44,491 bases of DNA, taken from positions 1 through 44,491 of the forward strand of contig CAZFAZ010000042.1 in assembly GCA_964517155.1 (NCBI GenBank), given 5' to 3'. How positions within the stretch are numbered: position 1 is the stretch's first letter; the number at the start of each line of letters is the position of its first letter. Under the pieces are notes generated by a model. The model did no database searches, was not told where the DNA came from, and saw only the letters and a program-made list of their open reading frames with translations. Made by a program: the position numbers and the translations under genes. The stretch comes from an uncultured Thermoplasmatales archaeon (GTDB taxonomy: Archaea > Thermoplasmatota > E2 > DHVEG-1). Positions 23,916-44,491 of this stretch are shown piece by piece.

Positions 23916-24212
23916 ATGACAGAAAAAGTAATAAATCCTGACGAGAACACAATATATGTTGGAAACAAACCACCAATGAGCTATGTGCTTGCTGTAGTTA
24001 CACAGTTCAACGGAGGCTCTGACGAAGTAGTAATAAAAGCACGCGGCCGTGCAATCAGCCGTGCAGTAGATACCGCAGAAATAGTCAGAAATAGATTTGT
24101 GCAAAACGCAAAAGTAAAGGATATCAAAATCGGAACTGAGAGCATTACAAATGAAGAAGGACGTAACTCCAACGTATCTTCAATTGAAATATCTCTTTAC
24201 ACGAAGAAATAA
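23916..24212 (+). CDS. albA: DNA/RNA-binding protein Alba (copy 1)
   Basis: [26 protein letters not shown] and VSSIEI; GGGAGG SD upstream. Confidence 0.96.
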
Positions 24213-32878: not shown

Positions 32879-32950
32879 ACATTTTTTTGCATATAAAATT
32901 GTAATATTTGGTATATTGATAATCTCTTTTAAGAAGATTAAAATTAAAAA

Positions 32951-32970
32951 GTACAGGGGAGGACTTTGAA
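32951..32970 (-). repeat. Degenerate copy of the tRNA-3'-end-like repeat seen at 42076 and 42483
   Basis: GTACAGGGGA-GGACTTTGAA aligns with GTGCAGGGGAAGGGATTTGAA at 17 of 21 positions. Confidence 0.35.
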
Positions 32971-33065
32971 TACCAAGTTATTCATAAAAAAAGTTTTTAT
33001 CTTGTTAAACAATAATTCTATGTTAACAGGCAATAAGATAAGTTAAAATAGTTTTTTTGAATTTA

Positions 33066-33578
33066 ATGATTCAAAAGATGAAAGAACACGATACTAAAAA
33101 AATAAATAAAAATGGAAATAAAAAACCCTTTCTTATACCATATAGAATATATTTAATCCAAGGTTTATTAAATAATGTTATTTCGATATTTTTATTAATT
33201 ATTCCCATAATTATTACTTACTTATTTTCATATGCACGTCCATATTTATCAAATATTTTATATATGATATTATCCGTTATATTAATTAATTTTTCACTTA
33301 TTTATTTTATAGTAATATATGGCAAATATTATAGTAATTATACTTTAGACCCAGAATTTAAATTTTATAAAAAATTTAAATCATATTTCTTAAGAAAATA
33401 TATTTTAAAAAATATGGTATGCCCAGACTGCAGTGGTAGTTTTTTAAAATATGAAAATAAAACAGATATGTCTCAGTTTGTTGAAGATTTCTTATATCAT
33501 TGCGAGTCCTGCCAAAACATCTACTCTATAGAAAAGGTTGGAGATTTTATTAGACCTACCTTCCGCTTTAAAAAATAA
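33066..33578 (+). CDS. Orphan membrane protein with a C-terminal zinc ribbon
   Basis: Two hydrophobic helices followed by CPDC...CESC. Visibly more AT-rich than its neighbours. Start could be 33057, 33066 or 33078. Confidence 0.6.
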   Translation: MIQKMKEHDTKKINKNGNKKPFLIPYRIYLIQGLLNNVISIFLLIIPIIITYLFSYARPYLSNILYMILSVILINFSLIYFIVIYGKYYSNYTLDPEFKFYKKFKSYFLRKYILKNMVCPDCSGSFLKYENKTDMSQFVEDFLYHCESCQNIYSIEKVGDFIRPTFRFKK

Positions 33579-33857
33579 ATAAAAGAATAAATCATGCTGG
33601 TGGATATCTTTGAATATAAGAACGTCATTAAAAAGCACATAATTATTCATTTTTATTACCCAATATATTCTTTAAAATTAGGACAAATAAAAATAAACCT
33701 ATTTCTTTCAATACTTGGGTTTACTTTTTTTATGAAAAAAGCATAGTCTACTAACTTATAGTTACGTTTCTTCTTAAGTAATATATATCTTGTAATACTC
33801 AATTATTTTGTTATAATGTGAGTGGATTTTAAAAAAAATGGCGTGTAAAAGTTACTC

Positions 33858-33874
33858 TTAACCCACGGGGTTAA
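33858..33874 (-). terminator. Hairpin just after the stop of the zinc-finger microprotein
   Basis: TTAACCC-ACG-GGGTTAA, with a minus-strand T run about 20 nt further on. Confidence 0.4.
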
Positions 33875-33876
33875 AA

Positions 33877-34020
33877 TTATGTTATTGCAGGATCGTTAAA
33901 CTCCTCATCTTTTTCATATTCCTCATCTTCATCTATAGATTTCTTACATTTCTCACAAACGCCTTCTTCCTCTTCCTCAGAAGTAAGCTCTTCACCACAT
34001 ATCTCACAGTAATTAGTCAT
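33877..34020 (-). CDS. 47-aa acidic zinc-finger microprotein
   Basis: MTNYCEICGEELTSEEEEEGVCEKCKKSIDEDEEYEKDEEFNDPAIT; GGAGG SD at 34028-34032, 7 nt before the ATG; CxxC-x13-CxxC. Missed by the ORF track. Confidence 0.8.
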   Translation of the reverse strand: MTNYCEICGEELTSEEEEEGVCEKCKKSIDEDEEYEKDEEFNDPAIT

Positions 34021-39433: not shown

Positions 39434-39757
39434 TTATTTGCTCTTTCTTGTTAAGATTATTTCAATTGAAGATACGTTGGAAGTTCTACCTTCTTCGTTG
39501 GTGATACTTTCGGTTCCGATTGTTATGTCTTTGATTTTTGCATCTGTTACAAACCTATTTCTTGTTATTTCTGCTGTATCCACCGCGGTACTTATAGAGC
39601 GTCCTCTAGCTTTTATTACAACCTCTTCAGAACCGCTGCCCTGAAACTGTGTAACTACTGCAAGCACATAACTCATCGGTGGTTTTTGCCCAACATATAT
39701 TACGTTTTCATCATTTCTTTTTGCTTTTGTTGCTTTTTCTGTTGTTTCTTCTGTCAT
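39434..39757 (-). CDS. albA: DNA/RNA-binding protein Alba (copy 2)
   Basis: [26 protein letters not shown] and VSSIEI. GAGG at 39766-69 favours ATG 39757. Confidence 0.95.
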
Positions 39758-40087
39758 ACTTTCTTCCTCGGTCAAATCATATTTTTGTAACAGCATACAA
39801 AATTAAATAGTTTCCGTCAGAAAAAAAACCCAACCTCGACTGTACAAAAGGATGTTGAAAAGCAGTAGGCAAACAGAATCAAGGCTTGCGGTCTATAAAA
39901 AATTATTTTTTATTATGTTTTCTTCTTTCTTCTGTTAAATAGCCATAATGATAGGCATCATACAGAGTAAAGCGTTGGATGCTTGGGGCGCCTATCTTTT
40001 TCCCATTTTGACTTTTTTACAAAATAACTTTATATACAATTGTTTCAAAAACTAATATCTGTAATCTTTAAGCAGGGTGATAATAAA

Positions 40088-40276: not shown

Positions 40277-40431
40277 GGGGGAATTCGGTAGACCATTAGT
40301 ATGGTAAAGGATGGGTCTTCCATTTCCGATTCCTATAATGTAATATGGTGTTTGGAATTGAGGGGAACCAAATGCGATTTACATCATCACATAAAAAAAA
40401 TAATAAAAAAACAATGCCCGATTCCCCCACA
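40277..40431 (+). ncRNA. Candidate structured non-coding RNA of about 150 nt
   Basis: TTTAAAT TATA box at 40245-51; the 5' GGGGGAAT-T-CGG pairs with the 3' CCG-ATTCCCCC; internal hairpins; T run at 40447-53. Confidence 0.5.
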
Positions 40432-40491
40432 ATCACTTAATCATACTTTTTTTAATCACACGTTAAAAAAAACAAGAAAGCATGTTTTAAT

Positions 40492-41772
40492 TTAAATCAA
40501 TCTTGTTTGTCCTTGAACTTTATATGTAGAAAGTTCTTCAAAAATATCGTCTTCTTTTAAAATTGTAAGAATATCATCTAGAGAAGATGAAACTTTAATA
40601 TCACGCGTTCGCCCGTGCCTCCCCTTAGATATAACACGTGCCGTAATTATACCAAGCATATCAAGCTCACTTATTAAATCTGCAACTCTTCTCTGTGTAA
40701 GTTTATCGGTTCTTGCTTTCTTGGAAAGGTTTTTGTAAATTTCATAAACCTCTCCTGTTGTTATCGCACCTGTTGTGCCTGTTTTTTTATTATGCTGCTC
40801 CTGTAAAAGGATAGCAAGAAGAATAAGTTTAGATTGCGTGGGAAGCGTTCTTACTACTTCCATAATACGATCTATTTCTATTTTATTTTGAGCAAGACGA
40901 ACATGTTTTTTTGTAACGCGGGGCGCCCTGCTTCGCTCTGCAAGCTCCGCGCTCATCCTAAGAAGATCTAAAGCACGTCTTGCATCGCCGTGTTCTTGAG
41001 CCGCAAGAGCACTGCATAAAGGGAGCACGTCAACCTCAACAGACCCTGGTTTAAGAGCAATTTCAATTCGCTGATTTAAAATATCTTGCAATTCACCTGC
41101 GTCGTAAGGTGGAAAAATCATATTTTCTTCTCCAAGACTTGATTTTACACGCGGATCGAGAAATTCTGTGAATTTTAAATCGTTTGAAAGCCCGACAATG
41201 CTTACTTTTGCGTTTTTAAGTTCTGTGTTTATCCTTGAAAGATTATATAGTGCTTCATCACCTTTAAGTTTATCAACTTCATCAAGAATAATGACTATTA
41301 CTCCGCCTGTTTTTTCTATCATCTGTTTAAGCTTTGAATATACTTCGTCTGTAGGCCAGCCGGTAAAAGGAATTCGCTCAGACCATTCATTAATAAAATG
41401 GTTTGCAATGTTTTGTAAAACACGATAATGTGTGTCTACTACCTCACAATTGATATAAATAAAATTAACTTTTTTATTGATTTGTGTTCCTTTCTCAAGT
41501 AATTCTTTGCCTACAAATTTAGTAACAGCTGTTTTGCCTGTTCCTGTTTTACCATAAATAAAGACATTACTTGGTGTTTCATCACGAAGTGCTGGAACTA
41601 AAATTGATGCTAAATTATTGATTTCTTTTTCGCGATGCGGAAGTATTTCCGGCGTATATGTTGGTCTCATTGCCTCCCGGTTAATAAAAATTCCGTCACG
41701 GCTTAACAAATGACCAAAGATATCTGCGTTTACTGTATTTTTTACCGTAAAAATATAACCTCCCGAGTTCAT
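40492..41772 (-). CDS. cdc6: Orc1/Cdc6 replication initiator
   Basis: Motifs LPHRE, YGKTGTGKT, ILDEVD, GDARRALDLLR and ELDMLGII...GRHGRTR winged helix. The ORF-track start at 41850 is probably too long. Confidence 0.96.
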   Translation of the reverse strand: MNSGGYIFTVKNTVNADIFGHLLSRDGIFINREAMRPTYTPEILPHREKEINNLASILVPALRDETPSNVFIYGKTGTGKTAVTKFVGKELLEKGTQINKKVNFIYINCEVVDTHYRVLQNIANHFINEWSERIPFTGWPTDEVYSKLKQMIEKTGGVIVIILDEVDKLKGDEALYNLSRINTELKNAKVSIVGLSNDLKFTEFLDPRVKSSLGEENMIFPPYDAGELQDILNQRIEIALKPGSVEVDVLPLCSALAAQEHGDARRALDLLRMSAELAERSRAPRVTKKHVRLAQNKIEIDRIMEVVRTLPTQSKLILLAILLQEQHNKKTGTTGAITTGEVYEIYKNLSKKARTDKLTQRRVADLISELDMLGIITARVISKGRHGRTRDIKVSSSLDDILTILKEDDIFEELSTYKVQGQTRLI

Positions 41773-41844
41773 TGTAATCAACAGATTAATATTAAAAAGT
41801 TTTGTATGTTTTTTTTCTTTACTTCTCCTATAAAATAAATATAA

Positions 41845-42046
41845 GACCAAGCCCCTTATTTCCAGTGGAGAAATATTATTGTTTATGGTTTCATCTTAAA
41901 ATTTTTTTAAAAATATAATTTTAAAAATGGAAGAATTCAAATACTAAAAATTTCATAACTATCTGGCTATACTTATCGTCTATTTTTTCTAGCATTTTTT
42001 GTATACTTACAAAAATAGTTTCCACACGAAACAAAGGGGTCGGTCT
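41845..42046. other. Probable replication origin: two inverted ORB elements flanking an AT-rich unwinding region
   Basis: Minus-strand TCCACTGGAAATAAGGGG (41852-69) and plus-strand TTCCACACGAAACAAAGGGG (42020-39), both followed by GGTCT, immediately upstream of cdc6. Confidence 0.8.
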
Positions 42047-42075
42047 AATGAATTGTAAAATATTATAGCGCCGGC

Positions 42076-42099
42076 GTGCAGGGGAAGGGATTTGAACCC
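42076..42099 (-). repeat. tRNA(Leu)-like 3'-end fragment, copy 1 (att-like direct repeat)
   Basis: Reverse complement GGGTTCAAATCCCTTCCCCTGCAC is a T-arm plus acceptor 3' strand; no 5' half is adjacent. Confidence 0.75.
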
Positions 42100-42196
42100 G
42101 TGATTACTGGTAAAAATTAACTTTTACTCCCGTTGAGCATAAAAGCAAGGGCAGGTTTATAAGTAATTAATTCATTTTAGGATTGAGGAGAAGAGG

Positions 42197-42406
42197 ATGA
42201 ATAAAAACAAAACATTAATTATCGGCGGTAGCGCAGGGATGATTTTTGTTATCATTGGTATGACTATTATCATATCTAATATGATAGGATTACCTATTAT
42301 CGCCGGGGGCTTATTTGCTGCCTTAATCGGTATAACTTTTATCACAATTGGTGGAATAATTTCATTTATAGCTCAAACGATAGCTAAAAAACAAATGAAA
42401 AAATGA
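42197..42406 (+). CDS. Small two-TM orphan membrane protein (69 aa)
   Basis: GAGGAG SD and TTTATAA box upstream; two Gly-rich hydrophobic helices and a basic tail. Confidence 0.7.
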   Translation: MNKNKTLIIGGSAGMIFVIIGMTIIISNMIGLPIIAGGLFAALIGITFITIGGIISFIAQTIAKKQMKK

Positions 42407-42482
42407 AATCAACTTTAAAGAGAAGTTTATACGCAATTAGTTGTTTTAAATTGTAGTTTGAAGGGAGAAAAACAATAAATTA

Positions 42483-42506
42483 GTGCAGGGGAAGGGATTT
42501 GGACCC
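42483..42506 (-). repeat. tRNA(Leu)-like 3'-end fragment, copy 2
   Basis: GTGCAGGGGAAGGGATTTGGACCC, 23 of 24 nt identical to 42076-42099. Confidence 0.75.
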
Positions 42507-42596
42507 CTGGAATTAAAAATAATTTTTATAAATAACAATTCTTTAATTACAAAATAATAAATCAAACAGAGTTATAAAAAAATAGTTATTGTGGGC

Positions 42597-42836
42597 TTAT
42601 TTCCCGCCAATTATAATAACATCTTTTACAGATTTTATTGAATTAAACGGAAACACAAGATGACCTTGGTTGTCTAAATGATACAAACGAGGATCTACAT
42701 CATCAGATGGCTCAATGAGAACACCAACAAGATCTCCTGTTTTAGTATCAACAGTAGTGTTTCTCATAACACCAAGATACAAACCTTCCTCAGTCATAAC
42801 TGTCTTTCCTCTTAGTTCATTTTCAGTTATTCTCAA
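42597..42836 (-). CDS. PRC-barrel domain protein
   Basis: LRGKTVMTEEGLYLG...VDTKTG...PFNSIKSVKDVIII; AGGAGG SD before TTG. Confidence 0.85.
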   Translation of the reverse strand: MRITENELRGKTVMTEEGLYLGVMRNTTVDTKTGDLVGVLIEPSDDVDPRLYHLDNQGHLVFPFNSIKSVKDVIIIGGK

Positions 42837-42868
42837 TTTATTTCCCTCCTTTTTATATTATACAAACT

Positions 42869-44491
42869 TTACATATATTGAATGTCTTTGTCGCTTTTAT
42901 CCTTTTTGGCGATACCGCTACCAAGAGTTTCAGAAATTTTATTATAAAACTTAAGAATATTGGGGGTAATTGATGCCCGTACATCTTCACTTGCTTTGTC
43001 AAAATGAACCTTTTTAATTTTAGTTGCCTTTTCGTTTTCACGAATTGAAAGCATCGCTGCCTCGCGGCACAAAGCCTCGATATCTGCACCCGAATAATTC
43101 TCTGTGCTTTCAGCCAAATGCTTAATATTTACATCTTTATCAAGAGGCATATTTTTTGTATGAATCTTAAAAATCTCTAAACGCGCCTCTTTATCAGGAG
43201 CAGGAATCAAAACTAATCTATCAAAACGACCAGGGCGCAATAAACTTGGATCGATTATATCTGGTCTGTTTGTAGCACCAATTACCACAACGCCTTCCAT
43301 ACTTTCCATGCCATCGATACTTGTAAGCAGTTGATTTACAACACTATCAGTTACATGACTTCCAGTATCAGTGCCGCGCATAGGTGCAATGCTGTCAAGT
43401 TCATCTAAGAATACTATAGTTGGGGCTACCTGGCGTGCTTTTTTGAATAGTTCACGAACTGCTTTTTCTGATTCTCCAACCCACTTACTCATAACTTCAG
43501 GACCTTTAATGCTGATAAAATTTGCTTTAGATTCACTTGCGACAGCCTTTGCAAGGAGAGTTTTACCTGTTCCGGGTGGGCCATACAGCAAAACACCACG
43601 TGGGGGATTTATACCCATTCTCTTGAAAACATCGGGCTTTGTAAGAGGCCATTCAACTGCCTCTTGCAACTGTTGTTTTGCTATTTGAAGACCGCCTACG
43701 TCATTCCAGTTAACTTTAGGTATTTCAATTAAAAACTCACGCATAGCAGAAGGCTCAATTCCTCGATGAGCATTTTTGAAATCCTCCATGTTTACTTCCA
43801 TTTTTTCAAGAACCTCGACAGGAATTGGTTTTTCAAGGTCAATTTCGGGCAGATATCTTCTAAGTGCACTCATTGCTGCTTCTCTTGCAAGAGCCGCAAG
43901 ATCTGCACCTACATACCCGTAGGTGAATTCGGCTAAATCATCAAGCTTTGCATCTTCTGTAAGAGGCATACCACGCGTATGAATCTGAAGGATCTCTTTA
44001 CGGCCTGCTACATCTGGAGCATCTATTCTTATTTCTCTGTCAAATCGTCCCGGGCGCCTTAGCGCAGGGTCAAGCGTGTCAGGTATATTTGTAGCACCAA
44101 TAACAATTAATTTTCCACGACCTTTAAGACCATCCATAAGTGTAAGCATCTGAGATACAACACGGCGCTCTACTTCTCCATGTACTTCAGAGCGTTTAGG
44201 AGCGATTGCGTCAATTTCATCGATGAATATAATGCTTGGTGCATTTTTTTCCGCTTCTTCAAAAATTTTACGAAGATTTTCTTCGGATTGACCGTAGAAT
44301 TTTGACATAACTTCAGGACCATTAATCGTATAAAAGTTTGCACCCGATTCATTTGCAACAGCTTTTGCAATAAGTGTTTTGCCTGTTCCTGGTGGACCGT
44401 GTAAAAGAACTCCTTTAGGCGGGTCGATTCCAAGTCTGTCAAAAAGCTCTGGATGTTTAAGAGGAAGTTCTATCATTTCTCGAACTTTTGA
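42869..44491 (-). CDS. cdc48: CDC48/VAT AAA+ ATPase, partial; the N-terminus lies past the right edge
   Basis: Two AAA modules (GPPGTGKT twice, DEID/DELD, RPGRFDR twice); C-terminus IQYM. Confidence 0.95.

Follow-up and report, generated by a model that had tools for sequence, protein, structure and literature searches.

Two fragments of a tRNA gene that enclose a single small gene, with no intact tRNA and no integrase beside them, raise a simple question: how did such a unit come to lie next to cdc6 and a putative replication origin? The window, that is, the whole stretch of 44,491 nt analysed here, is contig C42 of an archaeal genome (G000; 1.59 Mb, 91 contigs, completeness 90.8%), whose family we take to be Thermoprofundales (MBG-D). 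By Pfam, the contig encodes Cdc6, TBP, Alba and a PRC-barrel protein. The host cdc6/orc1 gene (40492..41728, minus strand; Pfam Cdc6_C and Cdc6_lid) likely starts near 41728, and the ORF caller extends it to 41850. Upstream of it lies a presumed host origin region (41851..42039, unstranded), in which two opposed boxes, at about 41851-41871 and 42019-42039, flank an AT-rich spacer; we take these boxes to be ORBs by their consensus, and they are conserved in relatives, as expected for the position beside an origin that had been proposed from the sequence. The PRC-barrel gene of the host (42597..42836, minus strand; Pfam) forms the right flank; it neighbours cdc6 in 34 genomes, and cdc6 itself is present in 41/41. 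Elsewhere in the window, alba (39434-39796) has a similar sequence in the opposite orientation at 23916-24212 (75% over 177 bp), probably its paralogue.

A sequence-only reading of the window had described two 24-bp direct repeats, 23/24 identical and 407 bp apart, around one gene, and coordinates and profile scores bear this out. Copy 1 (42076..42099, minus strand) and copy 2 (42483..42506, minus strand) are 23/24 identical (25/27 when extended), are spaced by 407 bp and score 47.9 and 43.6, and no score in the reversed genome exceeds 12.0; the pattern of core plus arm has one match in the window and none in 100 shuffles. Each copy is the core of a tRNA-Leu 3′ end, part of the T arm plus the acceptor strand. 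The two had been treated as equivalent, which did not hold: copy 1 reads as an attR-type site, and copy 2, with one change in its T loop, as the core of a tRNA-free landing pad. In folding, copy 1 did not exceed its shuffled controls (z 0.05) and copy 2 did so to a modest degree (z −2.6), via the G/C runs of its tRNA part; Rfam gave no match in the cassette region.

Comparison with relatives placed the foreign DNA at about 42042-42596, thus beyond the repeats. To the left of copy 1 it includes an extension of about 34 bp (42042..42075, plus strand), unmatched in relatives, which weakly resembles that of three other units when aligned by eye; a profile did not recover this likeness. The GC palindrome CGCCGGCG, which had been noted as abutting copy 1, is indeed present at 42069-42076, but it has two copies in G000 and was seen beside none of the other sites examined, so that we rejected it as a family feature; it appears incidental. 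On the other side of copy 1 lies arm A (42100..42140, plus strand), in which a palindromic box, ATTACTGGTAAA, is separated from the core by 3 bp and is followed by a CTCCCGTTGA motif. Then comes a promoter and SD module (42141..42196, plus strand; TTTATA at 42156, GAGGAG at 42185), common to cassettes with different cargo (C69 of G000, L244, L227 and L297); in run X1, loose contig ends lie at 42156 and 42201. The cargo (42197..42406, plus strand) is a 69-aa membrane ORFan with three hydrophobic segments and no Pfam match. Homologues of the ORF were found at 99% and 81%; the gene occurs in 1/118 genomes of the order and is absent from the metagenome contigs searched, Atlas matches were all under 0.9, and there were no RNA datasets among the listed holders of the locus. 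A second, ORF-less promoter/SD-like module (42411..42480, plus strand; TTTATA at 42426, GAAGGGAG at 42460) resembles modules that precede ATGs elsewhere, has no ATG ahead of copy 2 and is probably the truncated beginning of an adjacent gene. Arm B and the decayed remainder of the pad (42507..42596, plus strand), unmatched in relatives, carry CTGGAATTAAAAA, a variant of CTGGAGTTAAAA. The promoter, SD, membrane ORF and empty second signal set of the sequence-only reading could thus all be located, and we likewise found no tRNA within the window and no integrase near the cassette.

The sequence-only reading had also referred to 32951. What lies there proved to be a degenerate, solitary third copy (32950..33010, plus strand) with an arm-A-like flank, ahead of a 173-aa ORF; the gdh-glnA interval is site-free in three other genomes (G002, G013 and G018). 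The stretch 32950-33900 belongs to an AT-rich 1.1-kb insert between gdhA and glnA, in which the 173-aa ORF is of the membrane/zinc-ribbon kind and which also contains a small Cys-rich acidic ORF, found in G001 too.

The assignment of the repeats to tRNA-Leu was confirmed, since 37/59 tRNA-Leu genes in the fetched loci (16 TAA, 13 CAG, 6 CAA, 1 GAG and 1 truncated) have the same core type, with AAGGG at positions 10-14 and CCC at 22-24. Neither a complete Leu(TAA) nor a complete Leu(CAG) is in the G000 assembly; the edge at which contig C90 starts cuts the 5′ half of Leu(CAG), so that a cognate tRNA gene very likely exists in this genome. A search for further copies and arrays, as had been advised, was productive. 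The profile found 14 non-tRNA copies in G000, 13 of them seeds and one new; the new one, at a contig end, could be the missing tRNA end. At no more than three mismatches, the 24-mer occurs in 37/41 genomes, tRNAs included, with no control matches; one congener has 30 matches and the other 5. A search of 185,579 species genomes with the strict pattern of core and arm gave 42 distinct loci; every one is archaeal, and 38 are titled Thermoplasmata, Thermoplasmatales or Thermoplasmatota. Two sister units in G000, on C69 (722 bp) and C79 (685 bp), each contain one membrane-protein ORF, relatives carry arrays, and orphan sites lie amid housekeeping genes in single-contig genomes. Thus the repeat neither lacks a host tRNA match nor is unique, and we saw no repeat-free copy of the gene in relatives, any of which would have spoken against the sequence-only reading.

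The cores themselves bear on how the sites arose. Left cores are usually of the same type as the anchoring tRNA, and position 23 is A in 42/92 arm-A orphans and in 0/59 tRNA-Leu genes. The pairs 12:24 (0.90) and 14:22 (0.97) are kept, and 13:23 (0.45) is not. The A at position 23, together with the kept G-N-G and C-N-C around the 7-bp T loop, fits strand exchange at the T loop or next to it, and not a duplication of the target. The accessible text of two papers lists the T loop among the preferred sublocations of integration (PMC4383910; PMC8371274). One site on contig C71 of G000, a Leu-type left core facing a tRNA-Ser(GGA), is not predicted by a simple T-loop exchange.

Several other arrangements were seen along the way. 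On C71, 17118-17773 is a two-gene toxin-antitoxin-like cassette between the Leu-type site and the tRNA-Ser(GGA), and a similar pair lies between Leu-type sites on C78 of G017. Gene-less minimal units of 71-73 bp (the core and about 48 bp of arm A; G009 C1 2107656-2107729, G001 C371 1990-2061) are rather small for a circular intermediate. In G000, the contig ends at C3 26219 and C79 91/776 are probably parts of a single array with at least three sites, and the genes that flank it are close neighbours in G004, G013 and G018. Contigs C7 and C23 hold two diverged Val(CAC)...Leu(GAG) loci with the same neighbour genes, by duplication or in a mixed bin. On C206 of the congener G001 (L250), a 5.5-kb insert directly follows cdc6 (the counterpart of 40433-40486 in the window) and has three sites and a tRNA-Arg fragment; two of the three sites carry a third arm type, CAAGTTAAAATCTC. 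In L224, G019, G049 and G097, sites are found a few kb or less from the cdc48-PRC-cdc6 cluster. The cdc48 gene of many relatives (L036, L041 and L043-L048) is split at two positions by long inserts, which are probably inteins.

We found that arm A has a counterpart in a family of integrases. The box lies at offset +4 in 98/239 sites, a set that includes a few genuine non-Leu tRNAs, and in at most one site at any other offset. Behind tRNA-Leu in some relatives there is a two-gene module of a 181-aa ORF (the partner) and a PF00589 integrase, which also has an N-terminal SAM-like domain; the module occurs in 19/118 genomes of the order (about one in six), all of the same family as G000. In all partner loci listed (6 Leu, 3 Ser-GGA) the box stands 3 bp behind the tRNA end. 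Eighteen regions were fetched, of which five are Leu-anchored; two of these five are complete elements, L484 (9.4 kb, Leu-CAA) and L483 (17.6 kb, Leu-CAG), and three are repeat-free up to the contig end. Both complete elements have the order tRNA, box, partner, integrase and, at the far end, arm A and core, with boxes symmetric about the 24-mer. Moreover, two non-palindromic box variants from partner loci recur exactly in orphan arms, five times each and never reversed. On this comparison arm A is the attR arm of this integrase family, because the complete elements have arm A and the core as their far end and the box variants recur in orphan arms. Arm B was found on none of the complete elements examined. 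The box also stands at the right end of the cassette in 5 cases among 203 sites; most cassettes, including the one beside cdc6, are without it there.

The boxes are probably bound by the partner, through an N-terminus predicted to be ribbon-helix-helix (RHH)-like. By eye, in an alignment of L340-L365, its N-terminal strand co-varies with the box type: Y-V-Y goes mostly with ACCGGT or ACTAGT boxes, T-L/I-Y with GTTAAC and S-L-Y with GACGTC. Three of 22 members match RHH_7 (best E 2.5e-4), a weak match, and RHH rows from the PDB have E 0.25-0.56; the partner model (mean pLDDT 74.7) gave no Foldseek match at E≤0.001 and weak winged-helix rows. The partner-integrase family targets Leu, Ser, Gly, Arg and Glu tRNAs, and a subgroup (L353, L364 and L368) has no tRNA upstream.

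A search for a recombinase beside the cognate tRNA, another suggestion of the sequence-only reading, thus succeeded in relatives, behind tRNA-Leu, but not in G000. The Leu-clade integrase was not found in G000, G001, G002, G004 or G009 (best match 26%), two of which are single-contig genomes, nor was the partner gene in G000-G002, though G001 has about 30 sites. Of the three integrases in G000, one neighbours tRNA-Arg, another tRNA-Pro, and the third is at the end of a contig. On its contig C85, 19700-22052 holds a degenerate copy of tRNA-Arg(CCT), one cargo gene, the intact tRNA-Arg(CCT) and a convergent integrase. A viral carrier was also considered and rejected, as the viral collections searched held neither a site nor a close integrase.

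Arm B marks a different kind of site. The core with arm B occurs in 21 metagenome stretches and in 19/118 genomes, and by pattern we gathered 50 distinct B sites in 39 right-flank contexts. Further sites lie on the cassette side of 29/50 B sites; beyond them, no Leu-type site was found at any of the 36 with at least 1.4 kb in view, compared with 49/83 A sites. In the sites compared, arm B always closes the array and takes the place of the intact tRNA of anchored arrays, because no Leu-type site lies beyond it.

Such pads were found both empty and filled. At one locus, between genes that we take to be secE and ftsZ, G000 is without a pad, L397 has an empty pad and L404 a pad with a cassette; at a second, adjoining what is presumably folC, G001 is without a pad, L394 and L405/406 are empty, and L400 and L419 are filled. 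In the pairs L404/L397 and L400/L406, both flanks align with exactly the 24-bp core between them (23 bp in L419/L406). The left flanks of filled and empty pairs are 82-88% alike, against a baseline of 46%, and no left-flank pairing was possible for L401 and L409. In pad L402, the box and the first 90 codons of a partner gene (53% to a Leu-clade partner) are followed by the contig end, before any integrase gene.

How pads arise at non-tRNA places is a matter of conjecture; our guess is the illegitimate integration of small excised circles. Compared with a pad-less allele, the C69 unit of G000 is inserted exactly, with an exact 11-bp target duplication of which that allele has one copy; in C49 the duplication is approximate. 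As a general rule of seeding, such a duplication is not supported, since 2/47 units reach 11 bp, both picked beforehand, against a control rate of 2.7%. The window has no usable duplication, and its 10-bp match sits to the left of the ORB. A circularly permuted motif of the B arm occurs in 8/50 right arms and 5/50 left flanks, far above background, and these counts do not discriminate between models. A role of pads as terminators of convergent host genes was rejected (18 vs 12, p=0.36). The literature searched, in which supplements and most subscription papers were outside the scope, had no description of tRNA-free pads.

Taken together, we consider it probable that the unit is an integrase-less cassette, which docked by site-specific recombination in a tRNA-free landing pad near cdc6. 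The pad would be copy 2 with arm B, and the cassette (arm A, promoter and 69-aa ORF) would have integrated into it, leaving copy 1 as an attR-type junction. The enzyme would be a tyrosine integrase of the tRNA-Leu-adjoining family with its 181-aa partner; it would have acted in trans, because the Leu-clade integrase was not found in G000, from a source element presumably lost since or unassembled. Strand exchange may take place in or beside the T loop, with the palindromic boxes, which stand 3 bp from either edge of the 24-bp core, held by the partner and with circular cassettes as likely intermediates. The T-loop change in copy 2 may now lock the cassette in. What comparison of sequences showed is the site family, its two arm types with their polarity, the position of arm A at the far end of complete elements, pads empty and filled, the recurrence of cassettes and the absence of the unit in relatives. 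The sequence-only reading had offered two interpretations, and the second, a minimal cassette moved in trans in an integron-like manner, gains support from the matching integrase family and att arms, the recurring cassettes and the empty and filled sites.

Do such cassettes move, or is the unit a dead relic, a larger integrase element that shrank to one gene between att scars and is now inherited vertically and immobile? The integrase clade is absent from G000, copy 2 has its T-loop change, arm B is decayed and the second promoter truncated, all of which would suit a relic, and the accessible text of two papers describes the loss of integrase genes (PMC8371274, PMC5704250). Yet random deletion would usually spare the box and a partner stub, both less than 80 bp from the core, and the site is missing in both congeners. 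Among 80 distinct site-to-site intervals none matched an integrase, and 41/58 of those bearing ORFs have a single one. Units of 624-625 and of 664-669 bp recur with identical ends in different genomes and array positions, 87-92% alike, which argues against decay in place. In another study, the interior of the cassette recurs in two runs, X3 and X4, each time with a single difference (over 371 and 176 bp, respectively), on short contigs of low depth (3.5 and 2.7); these are the sole records at least 99% alike, of 124 and 108, and the 41 and 38 records at 95-99%, of which a part was listed, may include flank pieces. The long flank contigs listed for the same runs (cdc6, cdc48) are about 83-84% alike. 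A near-identical interior with distant flanks is moderate evidence of movement and goes against a relic. Neither the junction of a 407-bp circle, among the contig joints listed (contigs drop rare forms), nor an empty allele of the pad beside cdc6 was seen, and the genomes are related, so the site counts are not independent. On balance, we regard a dead relic as unlikely.

An assembly artefact, with the cassette stitched in via the repeat, is much less probable still. The run that is probably the source does break at copy 2 (contigs 40400-42513 and 42484-43600, depths 72 and 93), and several sites lie at contig ends; however, a single contig extends from cdc6 across copy 1 as far as copy 2, synteny holds on both flanks in 33 relatives, and single-contig genomes have orphan sites among their housekeeping genes.

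Casposons target tRNA 3′ ends, and the repeats could in principle have arisen as a target-site duplication through a casposase or some other transposase, with arm A as its terminal inverted repeat. The symmetry of the boxes about the 24-mer in complete elements and the usual match of left cores to the anchoring tRNA would agree with this. We give it slightly less credence than an artefact: there is no Cas1 in G000 and none over the cut-off in 24 genomes of the family, the non-tRNA base at position 23 cannot arise by duplication, and the enzyme adjoining the box is PF00589.

That the unit is the remnant of an element that imported the origin and cdc6, the first interpretation of the sequence-only reading, we hold to be next to impossible: copy 1 lies only 37 bp from an ORB-like box, and sites lie close downstream of cdc6 in G001, but the repeats enclose neither cdc6 nor the ORBs, and capture is refuted by a synteny that is site-free between cdc6 and the PRC gene in 33/33 relatives with both genes in view (the lone borderline score, 13.3 in G014, is the ORB itself). 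No intact tRNA was found in this interval in relatives. Judged by conserved synteny, the cdc6-ORB-PRC arrangement is ancestral in the order and the origin is native; the insert would be recent and lineage-restricted, because the interval is site-free in all these relatives and the cargo was found in one of 118 genomes.

Measured against known systems, the docked cassette matches none entirely. It has the displaced tRNA 3′ fragment of a tRNA-targeted integrative element, and neither the intact tRNA nor a tyrosine integrase of its own. Like the T-stem-region subclass of tRNA islands, as the accessible text of PMC4383910 and PMC8371274 presents them, it involves such a fragment, a tyrosine integrase and an exchange near the T loop; unlike them it has no full tRNA and no integrase and is under 2 kb. 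An Islander screen would miss it, because it fails these three requirements as stated there. Similar to a CIME, the cassette has att sites at both ends without genes for integration or transfer; as for an origin by decay, arm A matches the end of complete elements, and the box and partner stub are missing at the other end. No integrated element adjoins the cassette that could mobilise it in cis. CIMEs and accretion, as far as described in the text available of PMC5704250, likewise concern integrase-less DNA between att sites, stacked and moved by the integrase of another element. The cassette system differs from them in being archaeal, in its target, a dispersed tRNA stub with no intact gene as anchor, and in its units of 0.07-2.6 kb, which recur with fixed ends.

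With integrons and CALINs, including archaeal ones (bioRxiv 10.1101/2022.02.06.479319, in the portion accessible), the system shares gene-sized, exchangeable cassettes of one or two genes in arrays, the lack of a local recombinase and many small membrane ORFans. In contrast to these, its sites are derived from tRNA and not from attC, with no attC hairpins, an IntI would not be expected, its platforms are dispersed, and both orientations occur among its cassettes (26 vs 32), which come with a promoter of their own. Tycheposons and Prochlorococcus islands are alike in that transient integrase elements leave partial tRNAs and cargo (bioRxiv 10.1101/2020.12.28.424599); their remnants, by the part of that preprint at hand, lie inside tRNA-anchored islands, whereas the pads here lie between housekeeping genes and are reused. 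Casposons share the direct repeat from a tRNA 3′ end and symmetric inner motifs; here there is no Cas1-solo, no terminal inverted repeat at both ends (the cassette has its box at the left end only), and the hybrid cores point to recombination, not duplication. A captured origin would have cdc6 and ORBs inside a lineage-restricted insert, and here they lie outside it. By analogy, and within what the available portions of these sources state, the unit is functionally like integron cassettes, with a mechanism closest to CIME accretion, tRNA islands and tycheposon remnants.

Pads, empty and filled, at many ordinary spots of the chromosome suggest gene-swapping points that would be served by an outside integrase. 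More tentatively, and with slightly less than even confidence, we propose a decentralised, integron-like system, in which short tRNA-mimic pads would spread themselves to arbitrary places between genes and make these reusable for gene exchange, passing integrase elements would load and unload single-gene cassettes, and the RHH strand of the partner would co-vary with the att box. In the sediment lineage, Cas1 was not found in the family genomes searched and the integrase is missing from most genomes. The att sites derived from tRNA ends can leave tRNAs and stay functional, and screens that demand an integrase, an entire tRNA and a length above 2 kb are blind to such units. The compact integrase with its short, portable target may also be of interest as a genetic tool. 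For the widespread, uncultured sediment archaea that carry these sites, the cassettes offer a concrete and testable route of single-gene flux; if the decentralised system is real, the hosts would gain a traffic of cassettes without risking their tRNA genes and without keeping an integrase.
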